Of a stretch of 64,000 nucleotides of DNA, positions 48,955-64,000 are shown piece after piece (within the stretch, counting starts at the first letter, position 1; each line of letters begins with the position of its first letter). The notes beneath the pieces were generated by a model. It searched no databases. It saw only the letters and a program-made list of their open reading frames with translations, and was not told the DNA's origin. Both the position numbers and the translations under genes were made by a program. The stretch is from positions 1,897-65,896 of the forward strand of contig SVRQ01000009.1 in NCBI GenBank assembly GCA_015064725.1, given 5' to 3'. Source of the stretch: Oscillospiraceae bacterium (GTDB taxonomy: Bacteria; Bacillota; Clostridia; Oscillospirales; CAG-272).

Positions 48955-48973
48955 TGTTTATTCCTCCAAAGGG

Positions 48974-49001: not shown

Positions 49002-49020
49002 TGAGTTTGGGCTTTGTCAA
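48992..49020 (-). promoter_or_regulatory. consensus SigA promoter of the citrate synthase-gntR-acn-idh operon
   Basis: On the minus strand: TTGACA (49020-49015), 17-nt spacer, TATAAT (48997-48992). Confidence 0.7.
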
Positions 49021-49191
49021 TAGCGCGCAAAAAATTTTCGTGAAAATTTAAAATTTATTCAAAATTTATTTGCTTTTGCCGTAAAGGTGAAAATAACCAA
49101 AAAACCAAGCCTTGATACAGCGTTTTTCACAATGCAATATGCAACGTAAAAGGAGTTTTTCACTATTGAAAGGAAAAAACAATAATTTTTA

Positions 49192-49220
49192 TTGACAAAC
49201 GGGTTTGAATGTTGTAAAAT
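49192..49220 (+). promoter_or_regulatory. SigA-type promoter upstream of the RpiR regulator / BMC locus
   Basis: TTGACA (49192-49197), 17-nt spacer, TAAAAT (49215-49220). Confidence 0.55.
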
Positions 49221-49309
49221 GAAGAAAAATGAAAATATTTTTCATTTGATAAAAAAAGAAACATCAAAAAAACGCAGTAAATTTTCAGAACGAAAGCGAG
49301 GGCGTATAA

Positions 49310-50152
49310 TTGAATAAAATAATTCTCAAGACCCAGCTTTTGTATTCCGAAATGGGAAAATCCGAAAAAAAGGTTGCGGATTGGCTTATTTCCCATCCGG
49401 GAGATAATCTTCCGATGTCTATTTCGGAGCTTGCCGAGCTTTGCGAAAGCTCGGAATCCACCATTGTGCGTTTTGCCCGCAGGCTCGGCTTTTCCGGCTA
49501 CGGAGAGCTTAAGATCTGCGTTGCGGGAGAGCAGGAGAAAAAGGTGGTATTGCCCACGATAAACGAAAATGACTCCTGCTTTGAGATACTTGAAAAAATA
49601 TGTAACGATGCATACCTTTCCTTTGAGCGCACAAAGCGCACCATCGCTCCCGAAAACATTGCCGCCGCGGCAAACCTTATCGCGGGCGCGGGCAAGACCG
49701 TGCTTATCGGTCTCGGCTCCTCCGCCTCCGTTGCACAGGATGCGGCAAACAAGTTTTTGCGCGCCGGCTACCCCGCGTACTCCTACGGGGATACGCATAT
49801 GCAGATGATAGCTGCCTCCCATATGAAGGCGGGGGACGTGCTTATAGGCGTTTCCCAATCCGGTGCTTCAAAGGATATAGTGGAGGCGCTCAAGTTCGCA
49901 AAGAGCCGCGGAATCTCCACCATCTGCATCACGGGTACAGATAGATCGCCCATTATGAAACAGAGCGACATCGTACTTTTAACGGACACGGAGGAAACGA
50001 AGCACAGCTCCCTTGCGCTGAGTTCCCATCTGTCGCGCCTGGTTGTCATAGACTCTCTTTGCTATTACCTTGTATATAGAAACGAGGCAAACGGCACGGG
50101 CCTTGACGAGGAAAACGAAAATAACCTCAGATCCAAACGCGTTAACGAATAA
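49310..50152 (+). CDS. MurR/RpiR-family transcriptional regulator (HTH + SIS sugar-phosphate domain)
   Basis: HTH_6 region (EKKVADWLISHPGD...SISELAELCESSESTIVRFARRLGFSGY). SIS domain (VLIGLGSSASVAQD...VSQSGASKD). TTG start. Confidence 0.85.
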   Translation: MNKIILKTQLLYSEMGKSEKKVADWLISHPGDNLPMSISELAELCESSESTIVRFARRLGFSGYGELKICVAGEQEKKVVLPTINENDSCFEILEKICNDAYLSFERTKRTIAPENIAAAANLIAGAGKTVLIGLGSSASVAQDAANKFLRAGYPAYSYGDTHMQMIAASHMKAGDVLIGVSQSGASKDIVEALKFAKSRGISTICITGTDRSPIMKQSDIVLLTDTEETKHSSLALSSHLSRLVVIDSLCYYLVYRNEANGTGLDEENENNLRSKRVNE

Positions 50153-50195
50153 ACAGTCAATTTTTATACAAGCAAATAAATGCGGAGGAAAAGTT

Positions 50196-51395
50196 ATGAA
50201 AATTTTGGTTATCAACTCGGGCAGTTCATCGCTTAAATATCAGCTTTTCGATATGACAAGCGGGGAAGTGCTTGCAAAAGGCCTTTGCGAACGCATCGGC
50301 GGCGAATGCGGTATCATTACCCACAAGCGCCCCGGACACGAGCCATATAAGGCAGAACCCGTGCTTCCCGACCACGGTGCGGCTCTTTCTCTGGTTCTTG
50401 GTCTTATCACGGATAAGGAGCTTGGCGTTATCGAGCATATCGACGAGATAGAAGCTGTTGGCCACCGCGTGGCACACGGCGGCGAAATGCTCAAGAGCTC
50501 TTCTCTTATCGGAGAAAAGGAGCTTGAATACCTCTATTCCATCGTGGATATAAACCCCCTGCACGGTCCGCCCGCGATCAAGGGCATAGAAGCGTGCAAA
50601 AAGCTTCTTCCCAAGGTACCGCAGGTCGGCGTTTTCGATACGTCTTATTACAGCACGATACCCGATTACACTTACATCTGCCCTTTGCCTTACGAATATT
50701 ACGAAAAATATAAAATACGCCGCTACGGCTTCCACGGCACCAGCCACCGTTTTGTAACGGCGGAATGTGCAAAGATCATGGGCAAGCCGCTTGAAGAACT
50801 TAAAATAATCACTTGCCATATGGGCAACGGCTCCTCCATCACGGCAACAAAATACGGCAAGGCTCTTGATACGTCTATGGGCTTTACCCCTCAGGACGGT
50901 CTTATAATGGGTACACGCTCCGGCGCTATAGACCCTACCGTTCTTACATATATTATGAAAACGGAAAACGTTTCCGCACAGGAAATGGACGATATAATCA
51001 ACCGCAAATCCGGTCTTCTCGGTGTTTCCGGCGTTTCCAACGACTGCCGCGAGATCTGGGAAGCTGCGGACGCAGGCAATAAGAGAGCAAAGCTTGCGCT
51101 CGATATGCTTATAAACGACGTTAAAAAGATAGTAGGCTCTTACCTTGCCGAAATGAACGGCGCGGATGCGCTCGTATTCACAGCGGGTATCGGCGAAAAT
51201 GACTTTGCCGTACGCGAAGGCGTTTGCCGCGATATGGATTTCTTCGGTATCAAGATAGACGAAGAAAAGAACAAGAACGCCGCAAGAGGCGAATTTAACG
51301 ATATTACCGCGCCGGACGGAAAGATGAAGGTCTTCATCATTCCCACGGACGAGGAATATATGATAGCAAAAGACACACAAAATCTTGTAAAATAA
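50196..51395 (+). CDS. ackA: acetate/propionate kinase
   Basis: Start moved to ATG 50196 (GGAGGA RBS). MKILVINSGSSSLKYQLF, HRVAHGG, YGFHGTSH, FTAGIGEN. 399 aa. Confidence 0.93.
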   Translation: MKILVINSGSSSLKYQLFDMTSGEVLAKGLCERIGGECGIITHKRPGHEPYKAEPVLPDHGAALSLVLGLITDKELGVIEHIDEIEAVGHRVAHGGEMLKSSSLIGEKELEYLYSIVDINPLHGPPAIKGIEACKKLLPKVPQVGVFDTSYYSTIPDYTYICPLPYEYYEKYKIRRYGFHGTSHRFVTAECAKIMGKPLEELKIITCHMGNGSSITATKYGKALDTSMGFTPQDGLIMGTRSGAIDPTVLTYIMKTENVSAQEMDDIINRKSGLLGVSGVSNDCREIWEAADAGNKRAKLALDMLINDVKKIVGSYLAEMNGADALVFTAGIGENDFAVREGVCRDMDFFGIKIDEEKNKNAARGEFNDITAPDGKMKVFIIPTDEEYMIAKDTQNLVK

Positions 51396-51418
51396 TTAAA
51401 TGAAAGGAATATAAAACT

Positions 51419-52222
51419 ATGGTTTCATCTTTCGAAATTAAAAAAGAGATCTGCGAAGTAGGTCACAAAATCTATGCAGAGGGCTTCGTTGCTGCAAACG
51501 ACGGTAACATCTCCGTTAAAGTAAACGATAACGAATACTACTGCACCCCCACAGGCGTTTCCAAGGGCGACCTTACACCCGATATGATCATTCGTATCGA
51601 CGGCAAGGGCAACAAGATCGAAGGCAGACTCAACCCCTCCTCCGAAATTAAAATGCACCTCCGTGTTTACCAGGAACGTCCCGACGTAAACGCAGTTGTA
51701 CACGCTCATCCCCCCGTTGCAACAGCCTTCACAGTTGCAGGCGTACCGCTTGACAAGTACATCCTTCCCGAAGCAGTTCTTACAATCGGCTTCGTTCCCA
51801 CTTGCGAATACGGTACACCCTCCACAATGGAAATTCCCGATTCCCTTATGCCCTACATCCAGAACCACGACGCGTTCCTTCTCAAAAACCACGGTGCTCT
51901 TACAGTAGGTAACACACTTAAAAAAGCTTTCTTCACAATGGAAGAAGTTGAATTCAACGCAAAGATCTGCAAATACGCTATGGAACTCGGCAAGGTTGAA
52001 GAAATTCCTTGCGATCAGCTTGAAAAGCTCATGGATCTCCGTAAGAAGATGCGTATCCCCGGCAAGCACCCCGGCTGCAAAACTTGCAAAAACCTCGGCA
52101 CACCCGATTGCAAGTGCAAACAGAATGCAGAACCCAAGAGCGGCATCGTAACGGCTTCCGGCGCTGACGAAGCTCTCATTGCTGAAATCACAAAGAAAGT
52201 TCTCGCTTCTCTTGGCAGATAA
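51419..52222 (+). CDS. class II aldolase (L-fuculose/rhamnulose-phosphate aldolase-like) with a C-terminal encapsulation peptide
   Basis: Aldolase_II motifs (GNISVKV, EIKMHLRVY, VVHAHPP, LLKNHGALTVG). C-terminal extension CKTCKNLGTPDCKC followed by the amphipathic helix DEALIAEITKKVLASL. Confidence 0.85.
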   Translation: MVSSFEIKKEICEVGHKIYAEGFVAANDGNISVKVNDNEYYCTPTGVSKGDLTPDMIIRIDGKGNKIEGRLNPSSEIKMHLRVYQERPDVNAVVHAHPPVATAFTVAGVPLDKYILPEAVLTIGFVPTCEYGTPSTMEIPDSLMPYIQNHDAFLLKNHGALTVGNTLKKAFFTMEEVEFNAKICKYAMELGKVEEIPCDQLEKLMDLRKKMRIPGKHPGCKTCKNLGTPDCKCKQNAEPKSGIVTASGADEALIAEITKKVLASLGR

Positions 52223-52267
52223 TTTTTGGCTTTGCTGAAAATTAAACCTTGAAAGGAGAGATATAAA

Positions 52268-53725
52268 ATGGCAATCAACTGGACAGACGCGCAGATAGAA
52301 GAGATCGTTAAAATGGTCGTTTCCCAGATCGGCGGCGAGGCGAAAAAAGAAACGCCCGCATTCGATTCCGAAAGCTATAACGGCAGAAAATTTATCGGTA
52401 TCTTCGAGGATATGAACGATGCCATAAACGCCGCAAATGCAGGCTATAAGGCAATTCGCTCTATGCGCGTTGAAGAAAGAGAAAAGCTCATCTCCAAGAT
52501 CCGCGAGCTTACGCGCGAGGAAGCCGAAATTATGGCGACCATCGGCGTTGCGGAAACAAAGATGGGCAGAGTAGATCACAAGATCGCAAAACACCGTCTT
52601 GTAGCAGACAAGACGCCCGGAACGGAAGACATCATCTCTCAGGTTAAAACAGGCGACTGCGGTCTTACGCTTACGGAAATGGCTCCTTTCGGCGTTGTTG
52701 GCAGCATTACTCCCAGCACGAACCCTTCCGAAACAGTCATCTGCAACAGTATGGGTATGATAGCGGCGGGCAACGGTATCGTTTTCAACCCCCACCCCAA
52801 CGCTATTGCAACATCCAACTATGCCGTTGACCTTATAAACCGTGCGTGCTTCGCAGCGGGCGGCCCCAAGATACTTGTTGCCTCCGTTAAGAAGCCCACG
52901 CTCGATACGGCGAACATTATGTATAAGAGCCCGCTTATCAGACTTCTCGTTTGTACCGGCGGCCCCGGCGTTGTAAAAGCTGTTCTTTCCTCCGGCAAGA
53001 AGGCTATCGGCGCGGGCGCGGGAAATCCCCCCGTTATCGTTGACGATACGGCGGATATAAAGAAAGCCGCAAAAGACATTATCGACGGCTGTACGTTCGA
53101 TAACAACCTGCCCTGCATCGCGGAAAAGGAAGTTTTCGCGTTCGACAATATTGCGGACGAGCTTATCGACGGTATGCTGAAGAACGGCGCATACAAGATC
53201 ACGGCGGCGCAAGCGGACGAGCTTGCAAAGATAGTTCTCGTTGACGTTAAGAACCCCAAAACAGGCATCGTTAAGAAGACTGTTTGCCGCGACTGCGTCG
53301 GCAGAGATGCAAAGGTGCTTCTCTCCAAGATCGGCGTAAGCGTTGGCGATGAGGTTCGCTGCATTATATGCGAAACGGGCTTTGACCACCTCTTCGTTCA
53401 GGAAGAGCTTATGATGCCCATCCTTCCCATCGTTCGCGTTAAGAACATCGACGAAGCTATCGAAAAGGCTGTTGCCGCAGAACACGGAAACAGACATACG
53501 GCTCATATGCACTCCAAGAATATCGACAACCTCACAAGATTTGCGCGTGCGGTTGAAACGACTATATTCGTTAAAAACGCTCCTTCCTACGCGGGCATAG
53601 GCTTTGGCGGCGAAGGACATACAACATTTACTATCGCAGGCCCCACGGGCGAGGGTATCACCTCCGCGAAGAGCTTTACTCGCCTTCGCCGCTGCGTAAT
53701 GGCGGACAATTTCCGCATAATCTAA
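52268..53725 (+). CDS. CoA-acylating aldehyde dehydrogenase (PduP/EutE-like) with an N-terminal encapsulation peptide
   Basis: N-terminal helix TDAQIEEIVKMVVSQI followed by a linker. ALDH core with catalytic Cys in NNLPCIAEKE. 485 aa. Confidence 0.88.
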   Translation: MAINWTDAQIEEIVKMVVSQIGGEAKKETPAFDSESYNGRKFIGIFEDMNDAINAANAGYKAIRSMRVEEREKLISKIRELTREEAEIMATIGVAETKMGRVDHKIAKHRLVADKTPGTEDIISQVKTGDCGLTLTEMAPFGVVGSITPSTNPSETVICNSMGMIAAGNGIVFNPHPNAIATSNYAVDLINRACFAAGGPKILVASVKKPTLDTANIMYKSPLIRLLVCTGGPGVVKAVLSSGKKAIGAGAGNPPVIVDDTADIKKAAKDIIDGCTFDNNLPCIAEKEVFAFDNIADELIDGMLKNGAYKITAAQADELAKIVLVDVKNPKTGIVKKTVCRDCVGRDAKVLLSKIGVSVGDEVRCIICETGFDHLFVQEELMMPILPIVRVKNIDEAIEKAVAAEHGNRHTAHMHSKNIDNLTRFARAVETTIFVKNAPSYAGIGFGGEGHTTFTIAGPTGEGITSAKSFTRLRRCVMADNFRII

Positions 53726-53744
53726 TCGAAAGGATGAGATAGAA

Positions 53745-54992
53745 ATGGCATTTAACCCTTCCGACATTGAAAGCATCGTTCGCAAGATCGTAAGCGAGAT
53801 GAACGGCGCGGGCGAGCACAAGCACGAATGCTGCGGCGGCCACGGCGGCGAATGCAAATGCGGCAAGCATTCCGCAGGCATCCCCAAGACAGCCAAGGTT
53901 GCGATGCTTACAAAAACAAAAACTATCGAGATCAAGGAATTCCCCATTCCCGAACTTCAGGATGACGACATCCTCGTTAAGGTAGAAGGCGCAGGCATCT
54001 GCGGTACGGACGTTCACGAATGGAGAGCAGACCCGTTCGGTCTTATGCCCGTAGTCCTCGGTCACGAAGGCACAGGCGAGATCATTGCTCTCGGTAAAAA
54101 CATTAAAACAGATACATCCGGCAAGCCCATCAAGGTTGGCGATAAGGTGGTAACTTCCGTTATCTCCTGCGGCGAATGCAACATCTGCCGCAACCATCCC
54201 GCGAATACAAACCTTTGCGACAAGCAGGGCGTGTTCGGCCTTATCCCCCACAATGACGAACAGCCCCTCCTCGGCTGGTTCGCAACACATCTTCTTATCC
54301 GCGGCAAGGGTTCTACATACTTTGTTGTAAACGACCTTGACCTTTACGAAAGAATGATACTTGAGCTTGCTTGCGTTTGCGTTCACGCCCTCAAGCGTGC
54401 AAACGGCACAGGTCTTATGAATTTCAATACTAAAGTTGTTATCCAGGGTCTTGGCCCCGTTGGTCTTGTTATGGCTTGCGTGCTCCGCGCGGCGGGTATC
54501 AACCATATCATCGCCATCGACGGTACACAGACAAGACTTGATATGGCTAAAAAGCTCGGCGTTAAGACAGTCATCAACTTCAAGGAAGCAAAAACTCTTG
54601 AAGAGCGCGTAGCTCTCGTTACGGAAGCGTGCGGCGGCAACCTTGCCGACTTCGCATTCCAGTGCACGGGCGTTCCCGCGGCTGCTGCCGACATCTACTC
54701 CTACATCCGCCGCGGCGGCGGTATGTGCGAAATGGGCTTCTTCGTTAACAACGGCGAATACCAGATCAACCCCCACTTCACAATGTGCAACAAAGAGATC
54801 AACCTTGTTGGTTCTTGGGACTACAGCGCAGACGATTATCCCACAACAATGGCGTTCCTCCGTCAGGCAAGAGAGATGAACATTCCGATCAAAGAACTCA
54901 TCACTCATACATATCCGCTTGAAAAGATGAACGAAGCAATGGAAATGAACGTTTCCCAGCAGGGCATAAAGATCTGCTACGTTGCTGACTAA
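53745..54992 (+). CDS. zinc-dependent MDR alcohol dehydrogenase with an N-terminal encapsulation peptide
   Basis: N-terminal helix SDIESIVRKIVSEM, then HKHECCGGHGGECKCGKH. The MDR core has GICGTDVHEW, GHEGTGEI, structural Zn site CGECNICRNHPANTNLC, and GLGPVG NAD-binding fold. 415 aa. Confidence 0.85.
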   Translation: MAFNPSDIESIVRKIVSEMNGAGEHKHECCGGHGGECKCGKHSAGIPKTAKVAMLTKTKTIEIKEFPIPELQDDDILVKVEGAGICGTDVHEWRADPFGLMPVVLGHEGTGEIIALGKNIKTDTSGKPIKVGDKVVTSVISCGECNICRNHPANTNLCDKQGVFGLIPHNDEQPLLGWFATHLLIRGKGSTYFVVNDLDLYERMILELACVCVHALKRANGTGLMNFNTKVVIQGLGPVGLVMACVLRAAGINHIIAIDGTQTRLDMAKKLGVKTVINFKEAKTLEERVALVTEACGGNLADFAFQCTGVPAAAADIYSYIRRGGGMCEMGFFVNNGEYQINPHFTMCNKEINLVGSWDYSADDYPTTMAFLRQAREMNIPIKELITHTYPLEKMNEAMEMNVSQQGIKICYVAD

Positions 54993-55003
54993 GGAGAGCG
55001 CAT

Positions 55004-55342
55004 ATGGCACTCGGTATGATAGAAGTTTACGGCTTTACCACGGCTATCGTTGTAGCAGATAAGGTTGCAAAAAGTGCCGATGTCAAGGTCGTTGCTATAG
55101 ACAAAAATAAGCCCGCAAACGCAGATAAGGTGGAAGTTCCCCTTGTTATGGTAGTTAAGTTTGAGGGCGGCGCTTCCGAGGTTGCCGCGGCTATGGACGC
55201 AGGCGTTGCGGAAGCGGAAAAGAGAAATCTTTTCATTACATCAAAGCTTATTTCCAGACAGTCGGAGGAGATAGAGTGGTTCGCGAATCTCAGCGCACTC
55301 GGAAAAGACAAACTCCGCAACACGGAAAAAGAAGAAAACTAA
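55004..55342 (+). CDS. BMC-H shell protein (divergent, with internal insertion and C-terminal tail)
   Basis: Pfam00936-type start ALGMIEVYGFTTAIVVADKVAKSADV. Insertion DKNKPANADKVEVP. 112 aa. Confidence 0.8.
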   Translation: MALGMIEVYGFTTAIVVADKVAKSADVKVVAIDKNKPANADKVEVPLVMVVKFEGGASEVAAAMDAGVAEAEKRNLFITSKLISRQSEEIEWFANLSALGKDKLRNTEKEEN

Positions 55343-55391
55343 AAAAAATAAAAATCAAACAAAAATATAAAATTAAAGGAGAACAATTATT

Positions 55392-55667
55392 ATGCAGGAA
55401 GCACTCGGTATGGTAGAAACAAGAGGTCTCGTTGCAGCTATCGAAGCAGCGGACGCAATGGTTAAAGCAGCAAACGTAACACTCGTAGGTAGCGAAAAGA
55501 TCGGTTCCGGTCTCGTAAGCGTAATGGTTCGCGGCGACGTTGGCGCTGTTAACGCAGCAGTTGCAGCAGGCGGCGAAGCAGCTCAGAGACTCGGCGAAGT
55601 AGTTGCTACACACGTAATTCCTCGTCCTCACACAGACGTTGAAAAACTTCTCCCTAAACTCGGCTAA
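55392..55667 (+). CDS. BMC-H shell protein (PduA/PduJ-like)
   Basis: [27 protein letters not shown]...[10 protein letters not shown]...HVIPRPH. 91 aa. Confidence 0.93.
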
Positions 55668-55691
55668 TTCTTAAAGAAACGGTACGAAATT

Positions 55692-55967
55692 ATGGATCAG
55701 GCAATAGCGTTACTCGAAGTACAGGCGCTCGTTACAGCCATCGCGGGACTTGATGCGATGGTAAAGGCGGCAAATGTAAAGCTCATCCACGTCGAGAAAC
55801 GCTTGGGCGGACGATTGGTAACAGTCGTTGTGCAGGGCAGCGTGTCCGATGTGACCGCGGCTCTTGAAGCAGGTGTAAAAGCGGCGAAGCTTGTTGGCAA
55901 CGTAAAACTTGCGGAAGTTATCGCACGCCCGCACCCCGACGTTATGAGCTTTCTCACAACGGGTTGA
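55692..55967 (+). CDS. BMC-H shell protein (divergent paralog)
   Basis: [28 protein letters not shown]...VVVQGSVSDV...VIARPH. 91 aa. Confidence 0.88.
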   Translation: MDQAIALLEVQALVTAIAGLDAMVKAANVKLIHVEKRLGGRLVTVVVQGSVSDVTAALEAGVKAAKLVGNVKLAEVIARPHPDVMSFLTTG

Positions 55968-56016
55968 TAAGACCCATTTGAAGAAATACAAAAAATTTTA
56001 ATGGAGGTAATATACA

Positions 56017-56289
56017 ATGGAAGCACTCGGTATGGTAGAAACAAGAGGTCTTGTTGCGGCTATCGAAGCAGCAGATGCTATGGTTAAATCCGCTAACGTT
56101 ACACTTATCGGCAGCGAAAAGATCGGTTCCGGTCTCGTAAGCGTAATGGTTCGCGGCGACGTTGGCGCTGTTCAGGCTGCTGTTGCAGCAGGCGGCGACG
56201 CAGCTCAGAGACTCGGCGAAGTTGTAGCTACACACGTAATTCCTCGTCCTCACACAGACGTTGAAAAACTTCTCCCCAAGCTCGGCTAA
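56017..56289 (+). CDS. BMC-H shell protein (PduA/PduJ-like, near-duplicate of 55392..55667)
   Basis: Differs from the 55392 product by 4 substitutions and a 1-residue indel. 90 aa. Confidence 0.93.
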
Positions 56290-56301
56290 TTAAACTTTCG
56301 T

Positions 56302-56339
56302 GAATTTTCGGGGCGCTTCACCGCGCCCCTCGAAAATTC
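56302..56339 (+). terminator. GC-rich stem-loop (possible partial terminator / attenuator) after the shell-gene block
   Basis: GAATTTTCGGGGCGC (56302-56316) pairs with GCGCCCCTCGAAAATTC (56323-56339) with a bulge. The following T-tract is weak (GCTTTTG). Confidence 0.4.
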
Positions 56340-56462
56340 CGCTTTTGATGCTCATTTTAAATTAAATAATATTTGAAGAGCAAAAGCTCTTTTGTCTTTC
56401 TCGGCTCGCAAGAGGCGAAAAACGTAAAATAAATTAAATTTATTAAAAAACATCCCTATATT

Positions 56463-56489
56463 TGTAGGGGAGGGGCTTGCTCCTCCCGC
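56463..56489 (+). repeat. hairpin repeat module B inside the BMC operon
   Basis: TGTAGGGGAGGGGCTTGCTCCTCCCGC. The same hairpin occurs at 25110-25137 and 30704-30730. Confidence 0.85.
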
Positions 56490-56578
56490 ATTTATCAAAA
56501 CAATTTTTTAACTTCGAACAAAATTCCGCATCGTGCGGATTTACATAAATAAAAATTACAGCAGAGGAGCCGAAGATT

Positions 56579-57235
56579 ATGGAATATTCATCTGCGGAAA
56601 TAGCCGCAATCGTTAAAAAAGTTATATCCGATATGGGAAGCACCGAAGAAAATAACGGCGCAGACGTGCCGATCGGCGTTTCCAACCGCCACGTACACCT
56701 TTCCAGAGAGCACCTCGATATTCTTTTCGGGAAGGGATACGAGCTTACGAAAGCCAAAGACCTTTCTCAGCCGGGACAGTATGCGGCAAACGAGGTAGTA
56801 ACTATTGTCGGACCCTCGCTTCGCCCCATCGAAAAGGTAAGAGTTCTCGGTCCCATCCGTTCCGCTTCCCAGGTGGAAGTATCTATGACGGACTCTTACG
56901 TACTCAAGGTCAAGCCCCCTGTGCGCGAATCCGGCAGCATCGAAGGCTCTGCGGGTATCACAATGATCGGCCCAAAGGGTGTTGTAACTCTTAAAGAGGG
57001 CTGCATTATCGCAAACCGCCACATACATATGGGCATTGCCGATGCCGAAAAATACGCGGTATCCGACGGAGATTACGTTACCGTTGACGTTGAGGGCAAG
57101 GGCAAAAAGACACGCTGGTACGGCGTTCAGGTAAGAGTAAACAAGAATTTTGCTCTTGAAATGCACGTTGACACGGATGACGCAAACGCTGCGGGAATCG
57201 GCAACGGCAGCCTTGTTAAAATTGTCAAAGAATAA
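56579..57235 (+). CDS. pduL: phosphate propanoyltransferase PduL (PTAC) with an N-terminal encapsulation peptide
   Basis: N-terminal helix SAEIAAIVKKVISDM. Two PduL repeats (VSNRHVHLS..., IANRHIHM...). 218 aa. Confidence 0.92.
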   Translation: MEYSSAEIAAIVKKVISDMGSTEENNGADVPIGVSNRHVHLSREHLDILFGKGYELTKAKDLSQPGQYAANEVVTIVGPSLRPIEKVRVLGPIRSASQVEVSMTDSYVLKVKPPVRESGSIEGSAGITMIGPKGVVTLKEGCIIANRHIHMGIADAEKYAVSDGDYVTVDVEGKGKKTRWYGVQVRVNKNFALEMHVDTDDANAAGIGNGSLVKIVKE

Positions 57236-57256
57236 TTTTTCGACGGGAGTAATGAT

Positions 57257-57505
57257 ATGTTAAAGGGAATCGTTGTCGGAAACGTGGTTTCCACAAAAAA
57301 ACAGGAATCTCTTATGGGAAGCAAATTCCTTGAAGTAAACCTTATAGAAAACGGTGTTAAGACCGATAAATATATAATCGCGGTCGACAGCGTCGGTGCG
57401 GGTATCGGCGAGGTCGTTCTCGTGACGACGGGAAGCAGCGCGCGCCTTGCGCTTCGCAACCAGTTTGAGCCCGTTGACGCGGTTATCGTAGGTATAGTTG
57501 ACTGA
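57257..57505 (+). CDS. BMC-P pentameric vertex protein (EutN/PduN/CcmL family)
   Basis: MLKGIVVGNVVSTKK...AVDSVGAGIGEVVLVTTGSSAR...VDAVIVGIVD. 82 aa. Confidence 0.92.
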   Translation: MLKGIVVGNVVSTKKQESLMGSKFLEVNLIENGVKTDKYIIAVDSVGAGIGEVVLVTTGSSARLALRNQFEPVDAVIVGIVD

Positions 57506-57525
57506 TATTAAGATAGGAGAAAAAT

Positions 57526-58956
57526 ATGTCGGGTGAAATGAACAATATTTCCGTTAAGGAAACGAAATATCCGCTTTACAGAAAACCCGCGCCCGCACCC
57601 GATACGCACGACGGCATACTTCGTATGACCGCCACACATATCGAGTTTAAGGAAAGCGTAAAGACCGCCGGCATTGTCGGCGCGGGCGGCGCAGGTTTCC
57701 CATCTTACGCGAAGATCGCAGACGGCGTTGATACGATTCTTATCAACGGCGCGGAATGTGAGTCCCTGCTTTATACGGACTACGTTCTTATGCGCGATGA
57801 GCTTCGCAAAGTAGTGGAGGGTATAGATCACGTTGTTACGAATACAACGGCGAAAAAAGGTCTTCTTTGCGTAAAGGAGCATACGGGCAAGGAGCTTGGC
57901 TTCTTTGACGGGCAGAAGCTTTCCGAGCATACATTTGTGAAGTTTTTGCCGAACGTGTATCCTATGGGCGATGAAGTAAGCCTTATTTATGAGGCTACGG
58001 GCAGAAGCATCAAGCCCGGTTCGCTCCCCATCTCCGTGGGCGTTATAGTTTACAACGTGGAAACGGTTTTTGATATAAGAGAAGCACTCAAACACAGAAT
58101 TGCAGTTACGCATAAATGGCTTACGGTTGGCGGAAACACGGAAAAGAGCTTTGTTGTAAGAGTTCCCGTGGGTATGTACGTAAAGGAGCTTTTGGAAATG
58201 CTCGGTGTCAGCGTGCCGAAGGGCAACGTGGTGCTTGACGGCGGTCCGGCTATGGGCAGAGTTATAGATCACGAACGCGCCGCCGTTACAAAGACGACAA
58301 AATCGATCCTTATACTGCCCGAAAGCTTGCCGATAATACAGAGCAAGATGACGTCGCTTGACGTGCAGGTGCGCCGCGGCACTTCCGCGTGCTGCCAATG
58401 CACAAGATGTACGGACCTTTGCCCCAGAAACCAGCTCGGTTATCCTTTGGAGCCGCACAAGCTCGTGCGCGCGGCGCAGGGCGCAGGTATCGTTGACCCC
58501 AAGATATTCGCAACGGCAACGCTTTGCTGCGGATGCGGCATTTGCGAGCACGCGGCGTGCGGTCAGGGTCTTTCCCCCAGAGCGATGATATTTAAGCTCA
58601 AGGACGATCTTGCAAAGAACAAGACGAGATATATTTCCGACGAAACCATCTCTCCCAGAGATACAAGGGATTACCGCCTTATCTCAAGCGAGCGTTGGAA
58701 AGAGATAATCGGCGTTTCCAAATATGATAAGAAAGCCGAATTTATAGATAAGGACTTTGCTCCCTCCAGAGTAGAAATATCTATGAGAGGCCACATAGGC
58801 GCACCCTCCGTTCCTTGCGTTGAAAAGGGACAGGCAGTTGCCTTGGGCGAAAAGATAGCGGACGCGGCAGACGGACTTTCGCTTCCGCAGTACGCTTCCA
58901 TCTCCGGCGTTTGCCGCCGTGTGGACAGCGACAAGATAATCATTGAAAGAATATAA
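57526..58956 (+). CDS. PduS/RnfC-like Fe-S flavoprotein
   Basis: GAGGAGFPSYAK and NGAECESLL (RnfC/PduS NADH-FMN region). SLBB-like middle. Two 4Fe-4S motifs, CCQCTRCTDLCP and CCGCGICEHAC. 476 aa. Confidence 0.8.
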   Translation: MSGEMNNISVKETKYPLYRKPAPAPDTHDGILRMTATHIEFKESVKTAGIVGAGGAGFPSYAKIADGVDTILINGAECESLLYTDYVLMRDELRKVVEGIDHVVTNTTAKKGLLCVKEHTGKELGFFDGQKLSEHTFVKFLPNVYPMGDEVSLIYEATGRSIKPGSLPISVGVIVYNVETVFDIREALKHRIAVTHKWLTVGGNTEKSFVVRVPVGMYVKELLEMLGVSVPKGNVVLDGGPAMGRVIDHERAAVTKTTKSILILPESLPIIQSKMTSLDVQVRRGTSACCQCTRCTDLCPRNQLGYPLEPHKLVRAAQGAGIVDPKIFATATLCCGCGICEHAACGQGLSPRAMIFKLKDDLAKNKTRYISDETISPRDTRDYRLISSERWKEIIGVSKYDKKAEFIDKDFAPSRVEISMRGHIGAPSVPCVEKGQAVALGEKIADAADGLSLPQYASISGVCRRVDSDKIIIERI

Positions 58957-58977
58957 AAGAAAGGGACAAACTGTAAT

Positions 58978-59523
58978 ATGTATCAGGCCATAGGTATAAT
59001 TGAGCTTAAAAGTATAGCTAAAGGCGTTGAAGCGTGTGACTCCGCGCTTAAAAGCGCAGGCATTACGCTTGTCAGCGCACATCCGTCGTGTCCCGGAAAA
59101 TATGAGATAATCATCACGGGTGCTATTGCCGACGTAAGCGCGGCTCTCTCCCACGTGAAAACAAGATTTGAAGGAACTATAATAGACTCCTCCCTTATGG
59201 GCAGAATAGATCCGCAGGTCATCACCGCGCTCTTCGGCACGGAGCCCATAAAGAAAAGCGGCTCTCTCGGCGTTATAGAAACGTACAGCGCGGCAAGCGC
59301 AATAAAGGCTGCGGATATTGCCGTTAAAACGGCAAAGGTCGATATATACGATCTTCGCGTTTCTCGCGGTATGGGCGGTAAGGGTCTTGTTATGGTGACG
59401 GGCGACGTCGGTGACGTAAATGCGGCTGTTGAAGCAGGCGCTTCCCACGCGGCGGACCTCGGACTTCTTATGAACAAATCCGTTATTGCCGCACCGCACA
59501 AAGAGCTTTGGGAACAAATTTGA
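58978..59523 (+). CDS. BMC-T tandem-domain shell protein (PduT-like)
   Basis: Two fused BMC domains (AIGIIELKSIAKGVEACD... and SLGVIETYSAASAIKAAD...). The Cys in HPSCPGKY sits where PduT binds its pore Fe-S cluster. 181 aa. Confidence 0.88.
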   Translation: MYQAIGIIELKSIAKGVEACDSALKSAGITLVSAHPSCPGKYEIIITGAIADVSAALSHVKTRFEGTIIDSSLMGRIDPQVITALFGTEPIKKSGSLGVIETYSAASAIKAADIAVKTAKVDIYDLRVSRGMGGKGLVMVTGDVGDVNAAVEAGASHAADLGLLMNKSVIAAPHKELWEQI

Positions 59524-59543
59524 TTTGAGGCGGGGTAATTAAA

Positions 59544-62072
59544 ATGGAAAACATTAAATTTTGTATAGAGAAAAGCGCACGCATAGGTAAGCTTATAGAG
59601 GCGATGTACGAAAAATTGCCGGAGATCGAAGCGGACCGCGGCGTGCTTGTAACAGAAAGTTACAAAGCGACGGAAGGGCTTCCGCTTATCAAGCGCAGAA
59701 GTGCGGCTTTCGCGCACATTCTTCGCAATATACCGATCGTTATCCGCGAAAACGAGCTTATCGCGGGAAGCACTACCGTGACACCCCGCGGCTGCCAGGT
59801 ATTCCCCGAATATTCCTACGAATGGCTCGAAGCGGAGTTTGACACGGTCGCAACCAGAGAAGCAGACCCCTTCTACATATCCGAAGAAACAAAGCAAAGA
59901 CTTCGCGAGGTTTATCCCTATTGGAAAGGCAAGACCGTTTCCGACCTCGCAAAAGCAAATATGGCACCCGAAGCGTATGACGTATTTATGAACCACGGTA
60001 TCTTTACCGTTGGTAACTACTTCTACAACGGTATCGGCCACGTTTGCGTTCAGTATGACAAAGTTATAAATTACGGCTACGAAGCTATAATAAACGAAGC
60101 CAAGGCAGAGCTTGCAAAGCTAAACTTCGGCGACGGAGATTACGTTACACGCAAGAATTTCCTTGATGCTGTTATTGAAAGCTGCGAAGCCGTTATAGAA
60201 TATGCCCACCGTTACTCTCTTCTTGCAACACAGCTTGCAGAAAAAGAGCACGATATGGGCAGAAAGCTGGAGCTTATCCGCATTGCGAATGCTTGCGCTC
60301 ACGTTCCCGAAAAGGGCGCGAGAAACTTCTTTGAAGCTTGCCAGTCTTTCTGGTTCATTCAGATGCTTTTGCAGACGGAGTCCAGCGGACACTCCATCTC
60401 CCCCGGACGTTTCGACCAGTATATGTATCCTTTCTATAAGAAGGATATGGATGACGGCGTTATGTCCATAGAGGAAGCGCAGGAGCTTATCGATAATATC
60501 TGGGTAAAGCTCAACGATATAAACAAGGTGCGCGACGCGGCAAGCGCGGAAGGTTTTGCAGGCTACGGTCTTTTCCAAAACCTTATTGTAGGCGGTCAGG
60601 ATGAATACGGAATGGATGCGACGAACGATCTTTCCTATATGTGTATTGAAGCCTCCATCCACGTTTCTCTCCCTCAGCCCTCTCTTTCCATCCGCGTTTG
60701 GAACGGCTCTCCGAAATCCTTGCTCATCAAGGCGGCATCGCTTACAAGACTCGGCACGGGCGTTCCCGCATACTATAATGACGAAGTTATCATCCCCTCC
60801 ATTATGGCTCGCGGGCTTACACTTGAAGATGCGCGCGATTACTGCATAATCGGTTGCGTTGAACCTCAAAAGGCGGGCAAAACGGACGGCTGGCACGATG
60901 CGGCGTTCTTCAATATGTGCCGTCCGCTGGAGCTTGTTTTCTCAAACGGTTACGATAAGGGCAAGAAAATCGGCCCTGACACGGGCGACGTTCTTGAAAT
61001 GAAGACGTTTGAAGAATTTTACGATGCTTACAAAAAGCAGGAAGCTTATATGATCTCCCTTATGGTCAACGCGGATAACGCGGTAGATGCGGCGCACGCT
61101 ATGCGTTGTCCTCTCCCGTTCCAATCCTGTATGGTTGACGATTGTATTGCCCGCGGCAAGTCCTTGCAGGAGGGCGGCGCTATCTATAACTTCACAGGTC
61201 CGCAGGGCTTCGGCATTGCCAATATGACGGACGCGCTTATCGCCGTTCGAGAGCTCGTTTTTGAAAAGAAGCTCGTTTCTATGGCAGAGCTCAAGGAGGC
61301 GCTCGAGCACAACTATGGCAAGGGTCTTCGCGGTTATGATGCCCAGAAGCTTACAACGGATATTGCCTGCAAGATAGCCGAAAGCGGCAGCAAAATAACG
61401 GAGGCGGATATCAAGGAGATATACCGCGAGGTCACAACGGGCGAATACCTTACGGCAAGCGCGAAAAAGAGATATGATGAAATTCTCGAGCTTATCGCAG
61501 GGCTTCCCAAGTATGGCAACGATATAAGAGAAGCCGACCTCTTTGCAAGAGATGTGGCTTACACATACACAAAAGAAGTTGAAAAATACAAGAACTACCG
61601 CGGCGGTCAGTATCAGGCGGGTCTTTATCCCGTTTCCGCAAACGTGCCTCTCGGCGCACAGACGGGTGCGACGCCCGACGGCAGACTTGCATATACGCCC
61701 ATTGCGGACGGTGTCGGTCCTGTTTCGGGAAGCGACAGAAAAGGTCCCACTGCAACGGCAAACTCCGTTGCAAAGCTCGACCACGGTATAGCGTCCAACG
61801 GTACGCTTCTTAACCAGAAATTCCATCCCAGCGCACTTGCAGGTATGGCGGGTCTTGAAAAGTTCGTATCCCTTATCCGTGGTTACTTCGACCAGAAGGG
61901 TATGCACGTTCAGTTCAACGTAGTAAACCGAGAAACGCTTCTCGATGCGCAGAAGCACCCCGAAAACTACAAGAATCTTGTTGTTCGCGTTGCGGGCTAC
62001 AGCGCACTTTTCACAACGCTTTCACGCTCCTTGCAGGATGACATCATCAACAGAACAGAACAGGGATTTTAA
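59544..62072 (+). CDS. glycyl radical enzyme, diol (1,2-propanediol)-dehydratase type
   Basis: 842 aa. Cys loop is IIGCVEPQ (Cys438/Glu440 by my count). His166 lies in NGIGHVCV and Asp452 in GWHDAAF. Glycyl radical motif is VVRVAGYSALF (Gly818). Confidence 0.88.
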   Translation: MENIKFCIEKSARIGKLIEAMYEKLPEIEADRGVLVTESYKATEGLPLIKRRSAAFAHILRNIPIVIRENELIAGSTTVTPRGCQVFPEYSYEWLEAEFDTVATREADPFYISEETKQRLREVYPYWKGKTVSDLAKANMAPEAYDVFMNHGIFTVGNYFYNGIGHVCVQYDKVINYGYEAIINEAKAELAKLNFGDGDYVTRKNFLDAVIESCEAVIEYAHRYSLLATQLAEKEHDMGRKLELIRIANACAHVPEKGARNFFEACQSFWFIQMLLQTESSGHSISPGRFDQYMYPFYKKDMDDGVMSIEEAQELIDNIWVKLNDINKVRDAASAEGFAGYGLFQNLIVGGQDEYGMDATNDLSYMCIEASIHVSLPQPSLSIRVWNGSPKSLLIKAASLTRLGTGVPAYYNDEVIIPSIMARGLTLEDARDYCIIGCVEPQKAGKTDGWHDAAFFNMCRPLELVFSNGYDKGKKIGPDTGDVLEMKTFEEFYDAYKKQEAYMISLMVNADNAVDAAHAMRCPLPFQSCMVDDCIARGKSLQEGGAIYNFTGPQGFGIANMTDALIAVRELVFEKKLVSMAELKEALEHNYGKGLRGYDAQKLTTDIACKIAESGSKITEADIKEIYREVTTGEYLTASAKKRYDEILELIAGLPKYGNDIREADLFARDVAYTYTKEVEKYKNYRGGQYQAGLYPVSANVPLGAQTGATPDGRLAYTPIADGVGPVSGSDRKGPTATANSVAKLDHGIASNGTLLNQKFHPSALAGMAGLEKFVSLIRGYFDQKGMHVQFNVVNRETLLDAQKHPENYKNLVVRVAGYSALFTTLSRSLQDDIINRTEQGF

Positions 62073-62075
62073 TAT

Positions 62076-62103
62076 GAAACCATAGCCAAACGGCTATGGT
62101 TTC
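62076..62103 (+). other. perfect 12-bp stem-loop right after the GRE stop codon (no U-tract)
   Basis: GAAACCATAGCC-aaac-GGCTATGGTTTC. Confidence 0.6.
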
Positions 62104-62135
62104 CCCATAATTTAATTTTTAAGAGGTATTTTAAA

Positions 62136-62402
62136 ATGGATAACGAAAATGTGATCGTTCTTATGGACGAAGAGGGCAACGAGGTTGCGCTTGAGGTCCT
62201 TGACGAAATCGAATACGAAGGCAAAAACTACGGCGTGTTTATTTCTACCGATGAAAACGCAGACGAGGTTATAATCCTTGAAATTGCCGAAGACGGCAAC
62301 GGCGAGGCAGAATTCCTCAGCGTTGACGATGAAAAAGCTCTTGAAGCGGTTTTTGCGATCTTTATGGAAAACGCAAAGGACGATTTCGACTTTGTTGAGT
62401 AA
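62136..62402 (+). CDS. DUF1292-family small acidic protein
   Basis: VIVLMDEEGNEVALEVLDEIEYEGKNYGVFIS...EVIILEI...EFLSVDDEKALEAVFAIF matches the DUF1292 pattern (from memory). 88 aa. Confidence 0.75.
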   Translation: MDNENVIVLMDEEGNEVALEVLDEIEYEGKNYGVFISTDENADEVIILEIAEDGNGEAEFLSVDDEKALEAVFAIFMENAKDDFDFVE

Positions 62403-62433
62403 TTTGGCTTGAAAAAAGAAAGGAGGAGCGCCT

Positions 62434-63219
62434 ATGGGCATTCTCGATACACAGGGAAGAATATTCGATATACAGCGTTTCTCCATCCACGACGGACCCG
62501 GCATACGCACGATAATCTTCCTTAAAGGCTGCGCCCTGCGCTGCCGTTGGTGCTGCAACCCCGAATCTCAGGAGTTTAAAATCCAGGAGATGGAGCGCGC
62601 AGGCAAAAAAGAGATAATCGGGCGCGACGTTACCGTGCGCGATATTATGGACGAGATCGAAAGTGACTCTCCGTATTATGACAGAAGCGGTGGAGGCGTT
62701 ACGCTTTCAGGCGGCGAGGCACTTTGCCAGCCTGAATTTGCCGCGGCGATACTTAAAGCGTGCCACGACAGGGGCATCAACACAGCGATAGAGACCACGG
62801 GATACGCAAAACGCGAGGTGCTTGAAAAGGTAATTCCTCACGTTGACTACGTTCTTATGGATATAAAGCATATAAACGGCGAAAAGCACAAGGAATTTAC
62901 GGGCAGGGATAACGCGCTCATCCTTGAAAACGCGAGGTATATTGCGGAAATGGCGGATGATATGACCGTCCGTGTACCCGTGATACCCACGTTTAACGAT
63001 ACGGTTGAGGAGATACGCGCTATTGCAAAATTTGCGTCAAAGCTTCCAAAGGTGATGCACTTGCATCTTTTGCCGTACCATAGACTCGGCAGGGATAAAT
63101 ATACGGGTCTTGGAAGAGATTATGCGCTTGACGGAATTGAACCGTTGCCAAGTGAAAAGATAAATACGCTCTACGAAGCGGCGTGCGAAAGCGGCCTTAT
63201 CGTGCAGGTGGGCGGTTGA
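62434..63219 (+). CDS. glycyl-radical enzyme activating protein (radical SAM)
   Basis: IHDGPGIRTIIFLKGCALRCRWCCNPES (C33-x3-C37-x2-C40). GGGVTLSGGE motif. 261 aa with no additional Cys-cluster insert. Confidence 0.9.
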   Translation: MGILDTQGRIFDIQRFSIHDGPGIRTIIFLKGCALRCRWCCNPESQEFKIQEMERAGKKEIIGRDVTVRDIMDEIESDSPYYDRSGGGVTLSGGEALCQPEFAAAILKACHDRGINTAIETTGYAKREVLEKVIPHVDYVLMDIKHINGEKHKEFTGRDNALILENARYIAEMADDMTVRVPVIPTFNDTVEEIRAIAKFASKLPKVMHLHLLPYHRLGRDKYTGLGRDYALDGIEPLPSEKINTLYEAACESGLIVQVGG

Positions 63220-63233
63220 GCAAACGGATCAAA

Positions 63234-63385
63234 AATGCGTGAAAAAACGTAGGGACAGGCGTCCCCGAATGTTTGTTTTTACAAACGGGAGGAGCAAGCC
63301 TCCCCTACGATGCACGGACCAAAGATGCGCAAAAAAATGTAGGGACAGGCGTCCTCGACTGTCCGTCTTTATAAATGGGAGGAGA
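63234..63385 (+). repeat. two direct copies of a roughly 60-bp module-B-type repeat between the activase and the PduU-like gene
   Basis: ATGCGtgAAAAAAcGTAGGGACAGGCGTCCcCGA...GGGAGGAG lies at 63234-63295 and again at 63324-63385. The second copy supplies the GGGAGGAG RBS of the next gene. Confidence 0.85.
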
Positions 63386-63391
63386 TATTGT

Positions 63392-63760
63392 ATGAATGAA
63401 ATTTCAATGCAGGATAAGATGCGTATAATACAGGAGCTTGTTCCCGGCAAGCAGATAACGCTTGCACATATTATCGCAAATCCCGATCCGATACTTTTTC
63501 AGAAGCTGGGTCTTGACCCGAAGAATGATTATAAGAGAAGCGCCATCGGCGTGCTTACGGTGAGCCCTGCGGAAACCGCAGTCATCTGCGCTGATATTGC
63601 GATGAAATCCTCCGGCGCTGCGGTCGAGTTTGTGGATAGATTTACAGGTACAGTTATTATAGCGGGAACGGTATCCGAGGTGGAGGCTTCCATAACCGCT
63701 ATGGCAGGCTACTGCAAGGATAAGCTCCACTACACAGTTTGTGAAATTACAAAGACATAA
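63392..63760 (+). CDS. circularly permuted BMC-H shell protein (PduU/EutS type)
   Basis: Start moved to ATG 63392; the ORF-track N-terminus is repeat DNA. RIIQELVPGKQITLAHIIANP...GVLTVSPAETAVICADIAMKSSG. 122 aa. Confidence 0.88.
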   Translation: MNEISMQDKMRIIQELVPGKQITLAHIIANPDPILFQKLGLDPKNDYKRSAIGVLTVSPAETAVICADIAMKSSGAAVEFVDRFTGTVIIAGTVSEVEASITAMAGYCKDKLHYTVCEITKT

Positions 63761-63764
63761 TGAT

Positions 63765-64000
63765 ATGAAAAAAATAATTTTTATCGGCAGAGTTGGCGCT
63801 GGCAAGACCACGCTTACGCAAAGACTGCGCGGAGAAGATATAAGTTATTATAAGACCCAGTATATCCATTACGGCGACAGCATTATCGACACACCCGGAG
63901 AATACACGGAACGTGCAAGCCTTGCCGGAGCGCTTGCGCTCTACGCATACGAGGCGGATATAGTGGGTTTTCTTGTTTCTGCGGATGATTCCTATTCGAT
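63765..64000 (+). CDS. EutP/PduV-family GTPase, 3'-truncated by the window edge
   Basis: My translation from ATG 63765 is MKKIIFIGRVGAGKTTLTQRLRGEDISYYKTQYIHYGDSIIDTPGEY... It has a P-loop GRVGAGKT and DTPGE, and stays open to the end of the window. It is absent from the ORF track because it has no stop. Confidence 0.8.
   Translation, partial: MKKIIFIGRVGAGKTTLTQRLRGEDISYYKTQYIHYGDSIIDTPGEYTERASLAGALALYAYEADIVGFLVSADDSYS

Follow-up and report, generated by a model that had tools for sequence, protein, structure and literature searches.

Among bacterial microcompartments (BMCs) built around a glycyl radical enzyme (GRE), the glycyl radical enzyme microcompartment (GRM) class called GRM5 combines a propanediol-dehydratase GRE with a PF00596 aldolase and a PF00107/PF08240 reductase (Ferlez 2019, PMC6325248). 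GRM5 loci always carry PduS and PduT and never GrpU, and their activases are unique in lacking a ferredoxin-like insert (Ferlez 2019, PMC6325248); 202-216 such loci were counted in 2021 (Sutter 2021). In Clostridium (Lachnoclostridium) phytofermentans, Cphy_1174-1186 encode the GRE, its activating enzyme (AE), PduU, an aldolase, an aldehyde dehydrogenase (AldDH), an alcohol dehydrogenase (ADH), three BMC-H proteins, PduL, EutN, PduS and PduT, and are induced 15-87-fold on fucose and rhamnose (PMC3557285). The rhamnose and fucose isomerases of this organism (Cphy_1147 and Cphy_3155) are encoded away from its GRM5 locus (PMC3557285). Here we describe a comparable locus in a stretch of 64,000 nucleotides (hereafter the window) of contig SVRQ01000009.1, from an uncultured gut Clostridia bacterium of the Oscillospiraceae. 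With a probability that we put at roughly 85%, positions 49192-64000 form the main operon of a GRM5-type BMC, most likely one that turns rhamnose and/or fucose into propionate.

Gene content and class of the locus

The region holds 18 open reading frames (ORFs), all co-directional on the plus strand. An earlier note on this DNA, made from the letters alone, had listed 18 genes, and all were found in place with the proposed domains when the ORF list and the translations were searched with Pfam and, where models exist, NCBIfam (Table 1). Its placement of the locus in GRM5 also stood: every published feature of the class that can be tested at the sequence level is present, including all hallmarks given by Ferlez 2019 and by the supplement of Sutter 2021. 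Indeed, Pfam finds a class II aldolase and a Zn-dependent alcohol dehydrogenase (Zn-ADH) within the locus, together with a GRE and its cognate radical-SAM activase; PduS (57526-58956) adjoins PduT (58978-59523), and GrpU is absent. The presumed shell genes were recovered by both the PF00936 and the PF03319 searches: six proteins match the former and one the latter, all above the gathering scores. Four BMC-H proteins and one BMC-P protein agree with a GRM5 shell, and the additional EutS/PduU-type protein is also found in C. phytofermentans (Cphy_1176). This permuted BMC-H protein was considered as a GrpU and rejected, as the pore motif GxCPQ[N/H] is absent.

By its sequence, the GRE is a member of the 1,2-propanediol dehydratase group. 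It scores above the cutoff of TIGR01774, as the activase does for TIGR02494, and its best match among all PDB sequences is the biochemically characterised Roseburia inulinivorans diol dehydratase (RiDD, 5I2A), at 1237 bits in a single full-length stretch. The GRM3 propanediol dehydratase 9RCO and the glycerol dehydratase 1R8W follow at about 970 bits each, and choline, hydroxyproline, isethionate and other GREs reach at most 590 bits; a grouping with choline, hydroxyproline or isethionate enzymes, which the earlier note had named as fatal to its reading, was thus not observed. Over 834 residues, the window enzyme and RiDD are 64.6% identical, which may be compared with 69% for another GRM5 enzyme and 52% for GRM3 enzymes, each measured against RiDD (PMC12756279). 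The window GRE keeps the Cys loop C438-V-E440, H166, F338 and the Gly loop RVAGYS (the roles of the CXE motif and of Phe338 are described in PMC7077986). In the strand 'GLYPVSANV', it shares with both solved propanediol dehydratases a Val that is a Ser in glycerol dehydratase ('GLYPSSINV').

GREs other than RiDD align to the window enzyme in two pieces, with a break at residues ~592-650, whereas RiDD aligns in one piece. The two-piece alignments therefore show an internal insertion of about 60 residues, as described for GRM3/4/5 dehydratases (Ferlez 2019, PMC6325248). As in GRM5, this insertion is the predicted encapsulation peptide and an N-terminal extension is absent. The activase is also of the GRM5 form: its match to TIGR02494 skips about 40 profile positions, its CxxxCxxC motif lies at residues 33-40, and the ferredoxin-like insertion of about 70 residues is missing; relatives have activases of the same median length, 261 aa.

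Several details had been regarded as atypical in the earlier note. This view did not survive the comparison: the Zn-ADH, the short activase and the lack of nearby sugar genes are all typical of GRM5, and the C. phytofermentans locus likewise has a Zn-ADH and no sugar genes beside it, which makes both traits ordinary for the class. The locus is thus an intact, ordinary member of a well-catalogued class, with minor variant features, and not a new kind of system. The small DUF1292 protein encoded between the GRE and activase genes is one such variant. It was considered as a conserved GRM component and rejected: among 85 loci, it occurs at this junction only in L001-L006, where GRE identity is at least 98%, and it is confined to this species and its 98%-identical relative. 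It is a species-specific insertion. The GRE-activase junction is also an insertion hot spot in other loci, since a GH94 phosphorylase gene sits there in three of them (L046:12580-14928, L057:6197-8545 and L062:5713-8100).

Table 1. Features of the locus (window positions unless a locus is named).
Feature	Position	Strand	Basis or remark
Promoter-like site TTGACA-17-TAAAAT, candidate operon promoter	49192..49220	+	consensus scan, 11/12 matches
Palindrome TGAAAATATTTTTCA (TGAAA-N5-TTTCA), 15 bp, candidate RpiR operator	49230..49244	.	10 nt past the -10 box
RpiR-family regulator (HTH_6 + SIS), 280 aa, TTG start	49310..50152	+	PF01418, PF01380
Acetate/propionate kinase, 400 aa	50193..51395	+	PF00871, 464 bits; TIGR00016, 473 bits, above cutoff
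FucA-type class II aldolase, 267 aa	51419..52222	+	PF00596, 163 bits
CoA-acylating (propion)aldehyde dehydrogenase, PduP/EutE-like, N-terminal extension	52268..53725	+	PF00171; NF011927 (PRK15398), 669 bits, above cutoff
Zn-ADH, 415 aa, GRM5 'lactaldehyde reductase' type	53745..54992	+	PF08240, PF00107
BMC-H 1, divergent, 112 aa	55004..55342	+	PF00936, 59 bits
BMC-H 2, PduA-like	55392..55667	+	PF00936, 103.5 bits
BMC-H 3	55692..55967	+	PF00936, 69 bits
BMC-H 4, PduA-like paralogue of BMC-H 2	56017..56289	+	PF00936, 102.9 bits; direct repeat D1
Largest operon gap, BMC-H 4 to PduL, 289 nt, several hairpins	56290..56578	.	sequence
PduL phosphotransacylase, N-terminal extension	56579..57235	+	PF06130, 254 bits
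BMC-P pentamer (EutN/CcmL)	57257..57505	+	PF03319, 97 bits
PduS/RnfC-like flavo-iron-sulfur oxidoreductase	57526..58956	+	PF01512, PF13534, PF13375 (Complex1_51K/Fer4_17/RnfC_N)
PduT-type tandem-BMC shell protein	58978..59523	+	PF00936 twice; TIGR02526 match under cutoff
GRE, 1,2-propanediol dehydratase type, 842 aa, internal insertion of ~60 aa (residues ~592-652)	59544..62072	+	PF02901, PF01228
DUF1292 small acidic protein between GRE and activase	62136..62402	+	PF06949
GRE-activating radical-SAM enzyme, short form, 261 aa	62434..63219	+	PF04055, PF13353, no PF00037
Tandem 90-nt intergenic repeat D5, two copies 83% identical, activase-PduU spacer	63224..63384	.	built of dispersed hairpin elements
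EutS/PduU-type permuted BMC-H	63392..63760	+	PF00936; NF012012 EutS match under cutoff
PduV/EutP small GTPase, N-terminal 78 of 143 residues, truncated at the window edge	63765..64000	+	PF10662
GH106-like gene downstream of the locus in relatives	L020, L021, L024, L034, L059, L060, L063, L076, L077		

Relatives, pathway and competing substrates

A GRE scan of species-representative genomes confirmed at least 538 relatives, of which we kept the best 80. All 80 are bins of uncultured gut Clostridia; their samples are from deer, sheep, goat, rabbit and human, and some bins bear the label Candidatus Scatosoma. The closest GRE among them, from a water-deer colon bin, is 98% identical. Gene order is conserved in every one of the 80, as far as the contigs extend: a gene for either RpiR or the rhamnose isomerase RhaA, then kinase, aldolase, AldDH, Zn-ADH, four BMC-H, PduL, BMC-P, PduS, PduT, GRE, AE, PduU, PduV and ParA. 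Within this set, eight loci have an L-rhamnose isomerase gene (PF06134) in place of rpiR, directly 5' of the kinase gene (L013, L029, L033, L034, L051, L074, L083 and L084), and nine have, a few hundred bases downstream, a gene for a protein of about 935 aa that matches the GH106 alpha-L-rhamnosidase family. In our analysis, these RhaA and GH106-like neighbours are the best available evidence that the family would serve deoxyhexose catabolism, that of rhamnose in particular. Upstream neighbours of the RpiR-headed loci, compared by a metagenome scan with the RpiR alignment, were unrelated in every case examined, so the RpiR-headed locus appears as a self-contained module; the same scan gave no conserved sugar gene cluster 5' of these loci.

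The enzymes of the window locus can be ordered into a pathway. A cytosolic isomerase and kinase, with genes at other places in the genome, would supply L-rhamnulose-1-phosphate and/or L-fuculose-1-phosphate. The aldolase, a FucA-type enzyme by family, would then split its predicted substrate into dihydroxyacetone phosphate and L-lactaldehyde. The latter would be reduced to 1,2-propanediol by the Zn-ADH at the expense of NADH, an assignment that we take from the literature. The GRE, whose subfamily and active-site residues are apparent from its sequence, would dehydrate 1,2-propanediol to propionaldehyde, the acylating AldDH would convert this to propionyl-CoA and regenerate NADH, and PduL and the kinase would proceed through propionyl-phosphate to propionate and ATP. 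Inside the shell, the NADH used by the reductase would be balanced by that from the AldDH step. Electrons for the short activase probably come via PduS and via PduT with its Cys38, as hypothesized in the literature (Ferlez 2019, PMC6325248). In the translations, the PduS-like protein has two Cys4 motifs and the PduT-type protein has a Cys at residue 38. This Cys38 is presumably an iron-sulfur ligand.

Enzymes of the pathway also carry sequences expected of cargo. The aldolase consists of a catalytic core (residues 1-205) and a tail of 60 residues beyond it, in which a Cys-rich linker is followed by a C-terminal helix that resembles an encapsulation peptide ('..ELVAEITKKVLAxLGK') and is conserved in relatives. 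All of the closest solved structures are L-fuculose-1-phosphate aldolases, and the aldolase retains the PSSE, HAH and NHG motifs. In the Zn-ADH, the encapsulation-peptide-like helix is N-terminal and a Cys/His-rich linker follows; this helix ('SxxVESIVRKILGEM') is present in nearly all relatives that have the gene and absent from the L049 ORF. Cargo would accordingly be recruited by terminal amphipathic helices (aldolase and ADH), by terminal extensions (AldDH and PduL) and by the internal insertion of the GRE. The linkers next to the helices each contain four Cys, at residues 229-243 of the aldolase (52103-52147, CKTCKNLGTPDCKCK) and at residues 28-40 of the Zn-ADH (53826-53864, HECCGGHGGECKCGKH), and are expanded only in the clade of this species: many relatives keep the CxC of the aldolase linker, and the ADH linker has no or one Cys in most of them. 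A role in metal binding or redox chemistry is possible. The linkers may bind metal or form redox-sensitive cross-links, and so co-assemble the aldolase and the Zn-ADH, the first two enzymes of the pathway.

The rhamnose/fucose assignment is supported because the gene blocks match those of the fucose- and rhamnose-induced loci of C. phytofermentans and R. inulinivorans, and because relatives adjoin genes for RhaA or for rhamnosidase-like proteins. Several points weigh against it. The aldolase stays under all NCBIfam equivalog cutoffs (the best-scoring model, 3-oxo-tetronate-4-phosphate decarboxylase, gives 127 bits against a required 250), so sequence does not determine exactly which substrate it takes. 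What the Zn-ADH does is disputed: it has been taken for a propanol dehydrogenase, with PduS as the reductase (Petit 2013, PMC3557285), and for a lactaldehyde reductase (Ferlez 2019, PMC6325248). The locus has an RpiR/SIS regulator and not the DeoR-family regulator reported for canonical GRM5; this is the sole departure from the class and an ancillary one, the DeoR gene being listed by Axen 2014 as ancillary and not defining. Sugar supply can only be inferred, since neither the 64-kb window nor about 7 kb beyond it was found to encode an isomerase, kinase, permease or glycosidase for rhamnose or fucose. Upstream, where the earlier note had reported no isomerase, kinase or transporter, we agree: no such family was found among the scanned ORFs of the window, several of which have no Pfam match at all. 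It had also proposed to look for sugar genes beyond position 64000; none was found in about 7 kb past the edge. A tblastn search found no RhaA or GH106 homologue in the window. Finally, the assignment is a prediction from sequence.

Some of these points would also fit a different sugar. The main substrate could be another ketose-1-phosphate, for example D-ribulose-1-phosphate derived from D-arabinose, which would yield glycolaldehyde, ethylene glycol, acetaldehyde and finally acetate, or it could be another deoxy-ketose phosphate. D-ribulose-1-phosphate is also cleaved by E. coli FucA, the window aldolase lies under all equivalog cutoffs, the regulator is unlike that of canonical GRM5, and no deoxyhexose genes are nearby. 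Ethylene glycol, moreover, is also bound by GRM3 and GRM5 propanediol dehydratases (PMC12756279). We nevertheless find this account unlikely: loci with aldolases 70-72% identical to that of the window directly adjoin a rhamnose isomerase gene, others a GH106-like rhamnosidase gene, and the homologous locus that has been studied by experiment responds to fucose and rhamnose (PMC3557285).

The type of the GRE also agrees with a GRM3-like organelle that imports free 1,2-propanediol released by other gut microbes, the aldolase and the Zn-ADH being accessory or cytosolic; the AldDH, PduL and kinase steps fit any propanediol organelle. This would leave unexplained why the aldolase and the Zn-ADH keep cargo-type terminal amphipathic helices in nearly all relatives that have them, and why the activase has no ferredoxin insert, as reported for GRM5 only (PMC6325248). 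In addition, the 65% identity between the GRE and RiDD falls among GRM5 values and exceeds the 52% of GRM3, and Pfam detects neither an Fe-ADH of the PduQ type nor a diol facilitator gene at the locus; an organelle fed by free propanediol is thus very improbable. That the GRE acts on glycerol, choline, hydroxyproline, isethionate or sulfopropanediol, and that the locus belongs to another GRM class, seems scarcely credible. GRE eliminases are alike and their annotations can be imprecise (PMC13450708), and the NCBIfam sulfopropanediol dehydratase model does match, at 689 bits, but under its cutoff of 1000, and the full-length score against the diol dehydratase (1237 bits) is far higher. The Val typical of propanediol dehydratases, in the place of the glycerol dehydratase Ser, and the insertion specific to GRM3/4/5 argue in the same direction, and Pfam shows no trimethylamine-, sulfite- or proline-related genes at the locus. 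We therefore retain the conversion of rhamnose and/or fucose to propionate as the preferred function.

Control of the operon and a ParA/McdB-like pair

Position 49192 falls on the -35 box of the TTGACA-17-TAAAAT site, within a divergent intergenic region of 355 nt, and we infer that this site is the operon promoter. The palindrome TGAAA-N5-TTTCA, located just past it, occurs three times in the window against 0.19 expected. The other two matches (24472-24486 and 35634-35648) adjoin ORFs without a family match, and no link between them and the locus was established. In related loci, 1-5 copies lie just upstream of rpiR in 26 of the 26 that include that region, and none is found in the eight RhaA-headed loci. 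Across the 109 fetched loci, nearly all occurrences are within a few hundred bases 5' of rpiR, with one clear exception (L076). Because the motif and the RpiR gene co-occur, TGAAA-N5-TTTCA is likely the RpiR operator. RpiR has a TTG start, and its N-terminus is invariant across eight homologues.

A regulatory circuit can be proposed from this arrangement: bound to TGAAA-N5-TTTCA just past the promoter, the RpiR/SIS repressor probably holds off the whole operon, its own gene included, until it is released by a sugar phosphate. SIS domains of the RpiR family typically bind phosphosugars, and the likely inducer is therefore the substrate of the organelle itself or a near precursor of it. A known riboswitch or leader was not found: an Rfam scan of 48500-64000, with E values up to 1, gave only a chance-level RAGATH-25 match (23 bits; the gathering score is 49).

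Further signals may lie within the operon. The gap between BMC-H 4 and PduL, the largest of the window locus, is also the largest in relatives (median 158 nt). It contains a terminator-like hairpin at 56375-56392 and another at 56469-56487, which is a dispersed repeat that recurs at 25117-25135, 30711-30729 and 63287. A role of this gap in attenuation or mRNA stability can be suggested from its sequence, and the spacer may govern how many shell transcripts are made relative to enzyme transcripts. Short GC-rich hairpin elements are dispersed in the window, at 16251-16270 and in this gap among other places; the 90-nt tandem duplication built of them in the activase-PduU spacer resembles REP/MITE-type repeats. 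The activase-PduU gap varies by strain: it measures 83 nt in L001 and L002, 173 nt in L003, 200 nt in L005 and 172 nt in the window, and the 90-nt repeat is present in one copy in L001 and L002 and in two copies in L003 and the window. Over 273 nt (55397-55669 versus 56019-56291), the BMC-H 2 and BMC-H 4 genes share 92% of their nucleotides, a likeness that suggests recent duplication or gene conversion.

Beyond the window edge, contigs with an identical GRE (L001-L003 and L005) contain the complete PduV gene of 143 aa. A ParA/MinD-type ATPase gene (264 aa) and a small overlapping ORF follow at L001:12204-13260, which corresponds to approximately 64200-65256 in window numbering. An ORF of this kind that overlaps the stop codon of ParA is present in each of the 69 related loci with ParA, and the overlap usually amounts to 13 nt. 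The ATPase has the KGGxGKS Walker A motif. Its small partner matches no Pfam family; it begins with a conserved MPIGKNAIKR...APDMENS, continues with a variable middle rich in Lys, Ala and Pro, and ends with a conserved ..G..MP[YFAVI][YHF]LL (for example ..MPYYLL in relatives and ..GDDMPAFLL in the window species). 'McdB-like' proteins encoded next to PDU and GRM operons have a Tyr or Phe within the last 4-5 residues, near acidic residues (PMC8359340; PMC11321042). By sequence, ParA and its partner thus have the published characteristics of an McdAB-like pair for BMC positioning. With the McdAB carboxysome system and the 'McdB-like' proteins they share a ParA-type ATPase and a translationally coupled, lysine-rich and disordered-looking partner; with the non-carboxysome McdB-like proteins they further share the acidic-aromatic C-terminal motif, in which a Y or F is among the final four residues. 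In contrast to McdAB, the partner has a conserved N-terminal motif of its own. PduV and the ParA/McdB-like pair would probably distribute the organelles in the cell.

All together, these observations suggest a joint model, which we hold tentatively and at somewhat less than even odds. In a large clade of uncultured gut Clostridia, GRM5 would be a self-contained cassette of about 16 kb with its own control device, an autoregulated RpiR/SIS repressor that acts on TGAAA-N5-TTTCA and senses the sugar-phosphate substrate of the organelle, and with its own inheritance device, a ParA and McdB-like pair that spaces the metabolosomes on the nucleoid. If this is true, the clade would be a good test bed for the ParA-based positioning of a catabolic microcompartment in Firmicutes.

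Surroundings, significance and comparison with known systems

In contigs with an identical GRE, the right side of the window continues with the full-length PduV gene, the ParA/MinD-type ATPase gene, the 91-aa ORF that overlaps its stop codon and a gene for a 184-aa protein, after which convergent unrelated genes encode a phosphate-binding protein, FtsH and UvrA. Because these unrelated genes follow there, the locus ends about 1.3 kb past the window edge. The 184-aa protein and several upstream ORFs have no Pfam match. On the left, the locus is preceded directly by a divergent operon with HMGL-like, GntR and aconitase genes. Its minus-strand promoter (49020-48992) is a perfect TTGACA-17-TATAAT, and an 18-nt palindrome, ATTGTATGATTGTATACAATTATACAAT (48974-49001), overlaps the -10 box and extends downstream of it; the palindrome is probably the GntR operator. 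The rest of the window is ordinary chromosome, with genes for topoisomerase I, DprA, PlsX, RNase III, SMC, LeuRS, Der, PlsY and IF3, and also a GH31 glycosidase gene. GC content and codon usage of the locus match those of the window's housekeeping genes, and there is therefore no sign of recent foreign origin. Two long antisense ORFs, of 840 aa (51425-53947, minus strand) and 444 aa (53676-55010, minus strand), were considered as genes and rejected: the first spans the aldolase and AldDH genes, the two together cover the aldolase, AldDH and ADH genes, and the antisense frame stays open because TTA, CTA and TCA codons are almost wholly avoided genome-wide.

Much of the propionate in animal guts stems from the deoxy-sugars of mucin and plant cell walls, and loci of this type abound in never-cultured Clostridia of ruminant and human guts (at least 538 relatives by the GRE scan). 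For annotation, the class and the boundaries of the locus are now fixed, and the absence of sugar genes is shown to be normal for the class. The most useful by-products are the candidate RpiR operator motif and the fully conserved ParA/McdB-like pair, which could serve to study metabolosome positioning.

Compared with the known systems, the window locus is closest to the GRM5 loci of C. phytofermentans (Cphy_1174-1187) and R. inulinivorans (ABC25524-25540). It shares with them the propanediol-dehydratase GRE, the short activase, the FucA-type aldolase, AldDH, Zn-ADH, PduL and PduS; the kinds of shell protein (BMC-H, one BMC-P, PduT and the PduU/EutS type); the internal order of the blocks, aldolase-AldDH-ADH-BMC-H-PduL-BMC-P-PduS-PduT on the one hand and GRE-AE on the other; and the location of the sugar isomerase genes outside the locus. 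The arrangement of these blocks differs: in the window, the GRE block comes after the enzyme and shell block, as the Roseburia accession order implies, whereas it comes before it in C. phytofermentans. Unlike both loci, that of the window has an RpiR/SIS regulator in the place of one of DeoR/SrlR type, includes the acetate/propionate kinase in the operon, has PduU at its end with PduV, ParA and the McdB-like gene appended, carries DUF1292 between GRE and AE (in this species only), and is devoid of a DUF336 or hydrolase gene. RiDD (PDB 5I2A/5I2G) and the window GRE both have the internal insertion, but the insertion itself (~592-652) is just 31% identical. The GRM3 propanediol microcompartments (R. 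palustris, R. planticola; PDB 9RCO) appear, from sequence comparison, to share with the window the GRE chemistry, the internal-insertion type of the GRE and the AldDH and PduL steps. They differ from it in that they have no aldolase/Zn-ADH front end, their activases carry the ferredoxin-like insert, and the GRM3B variants use GrpU.

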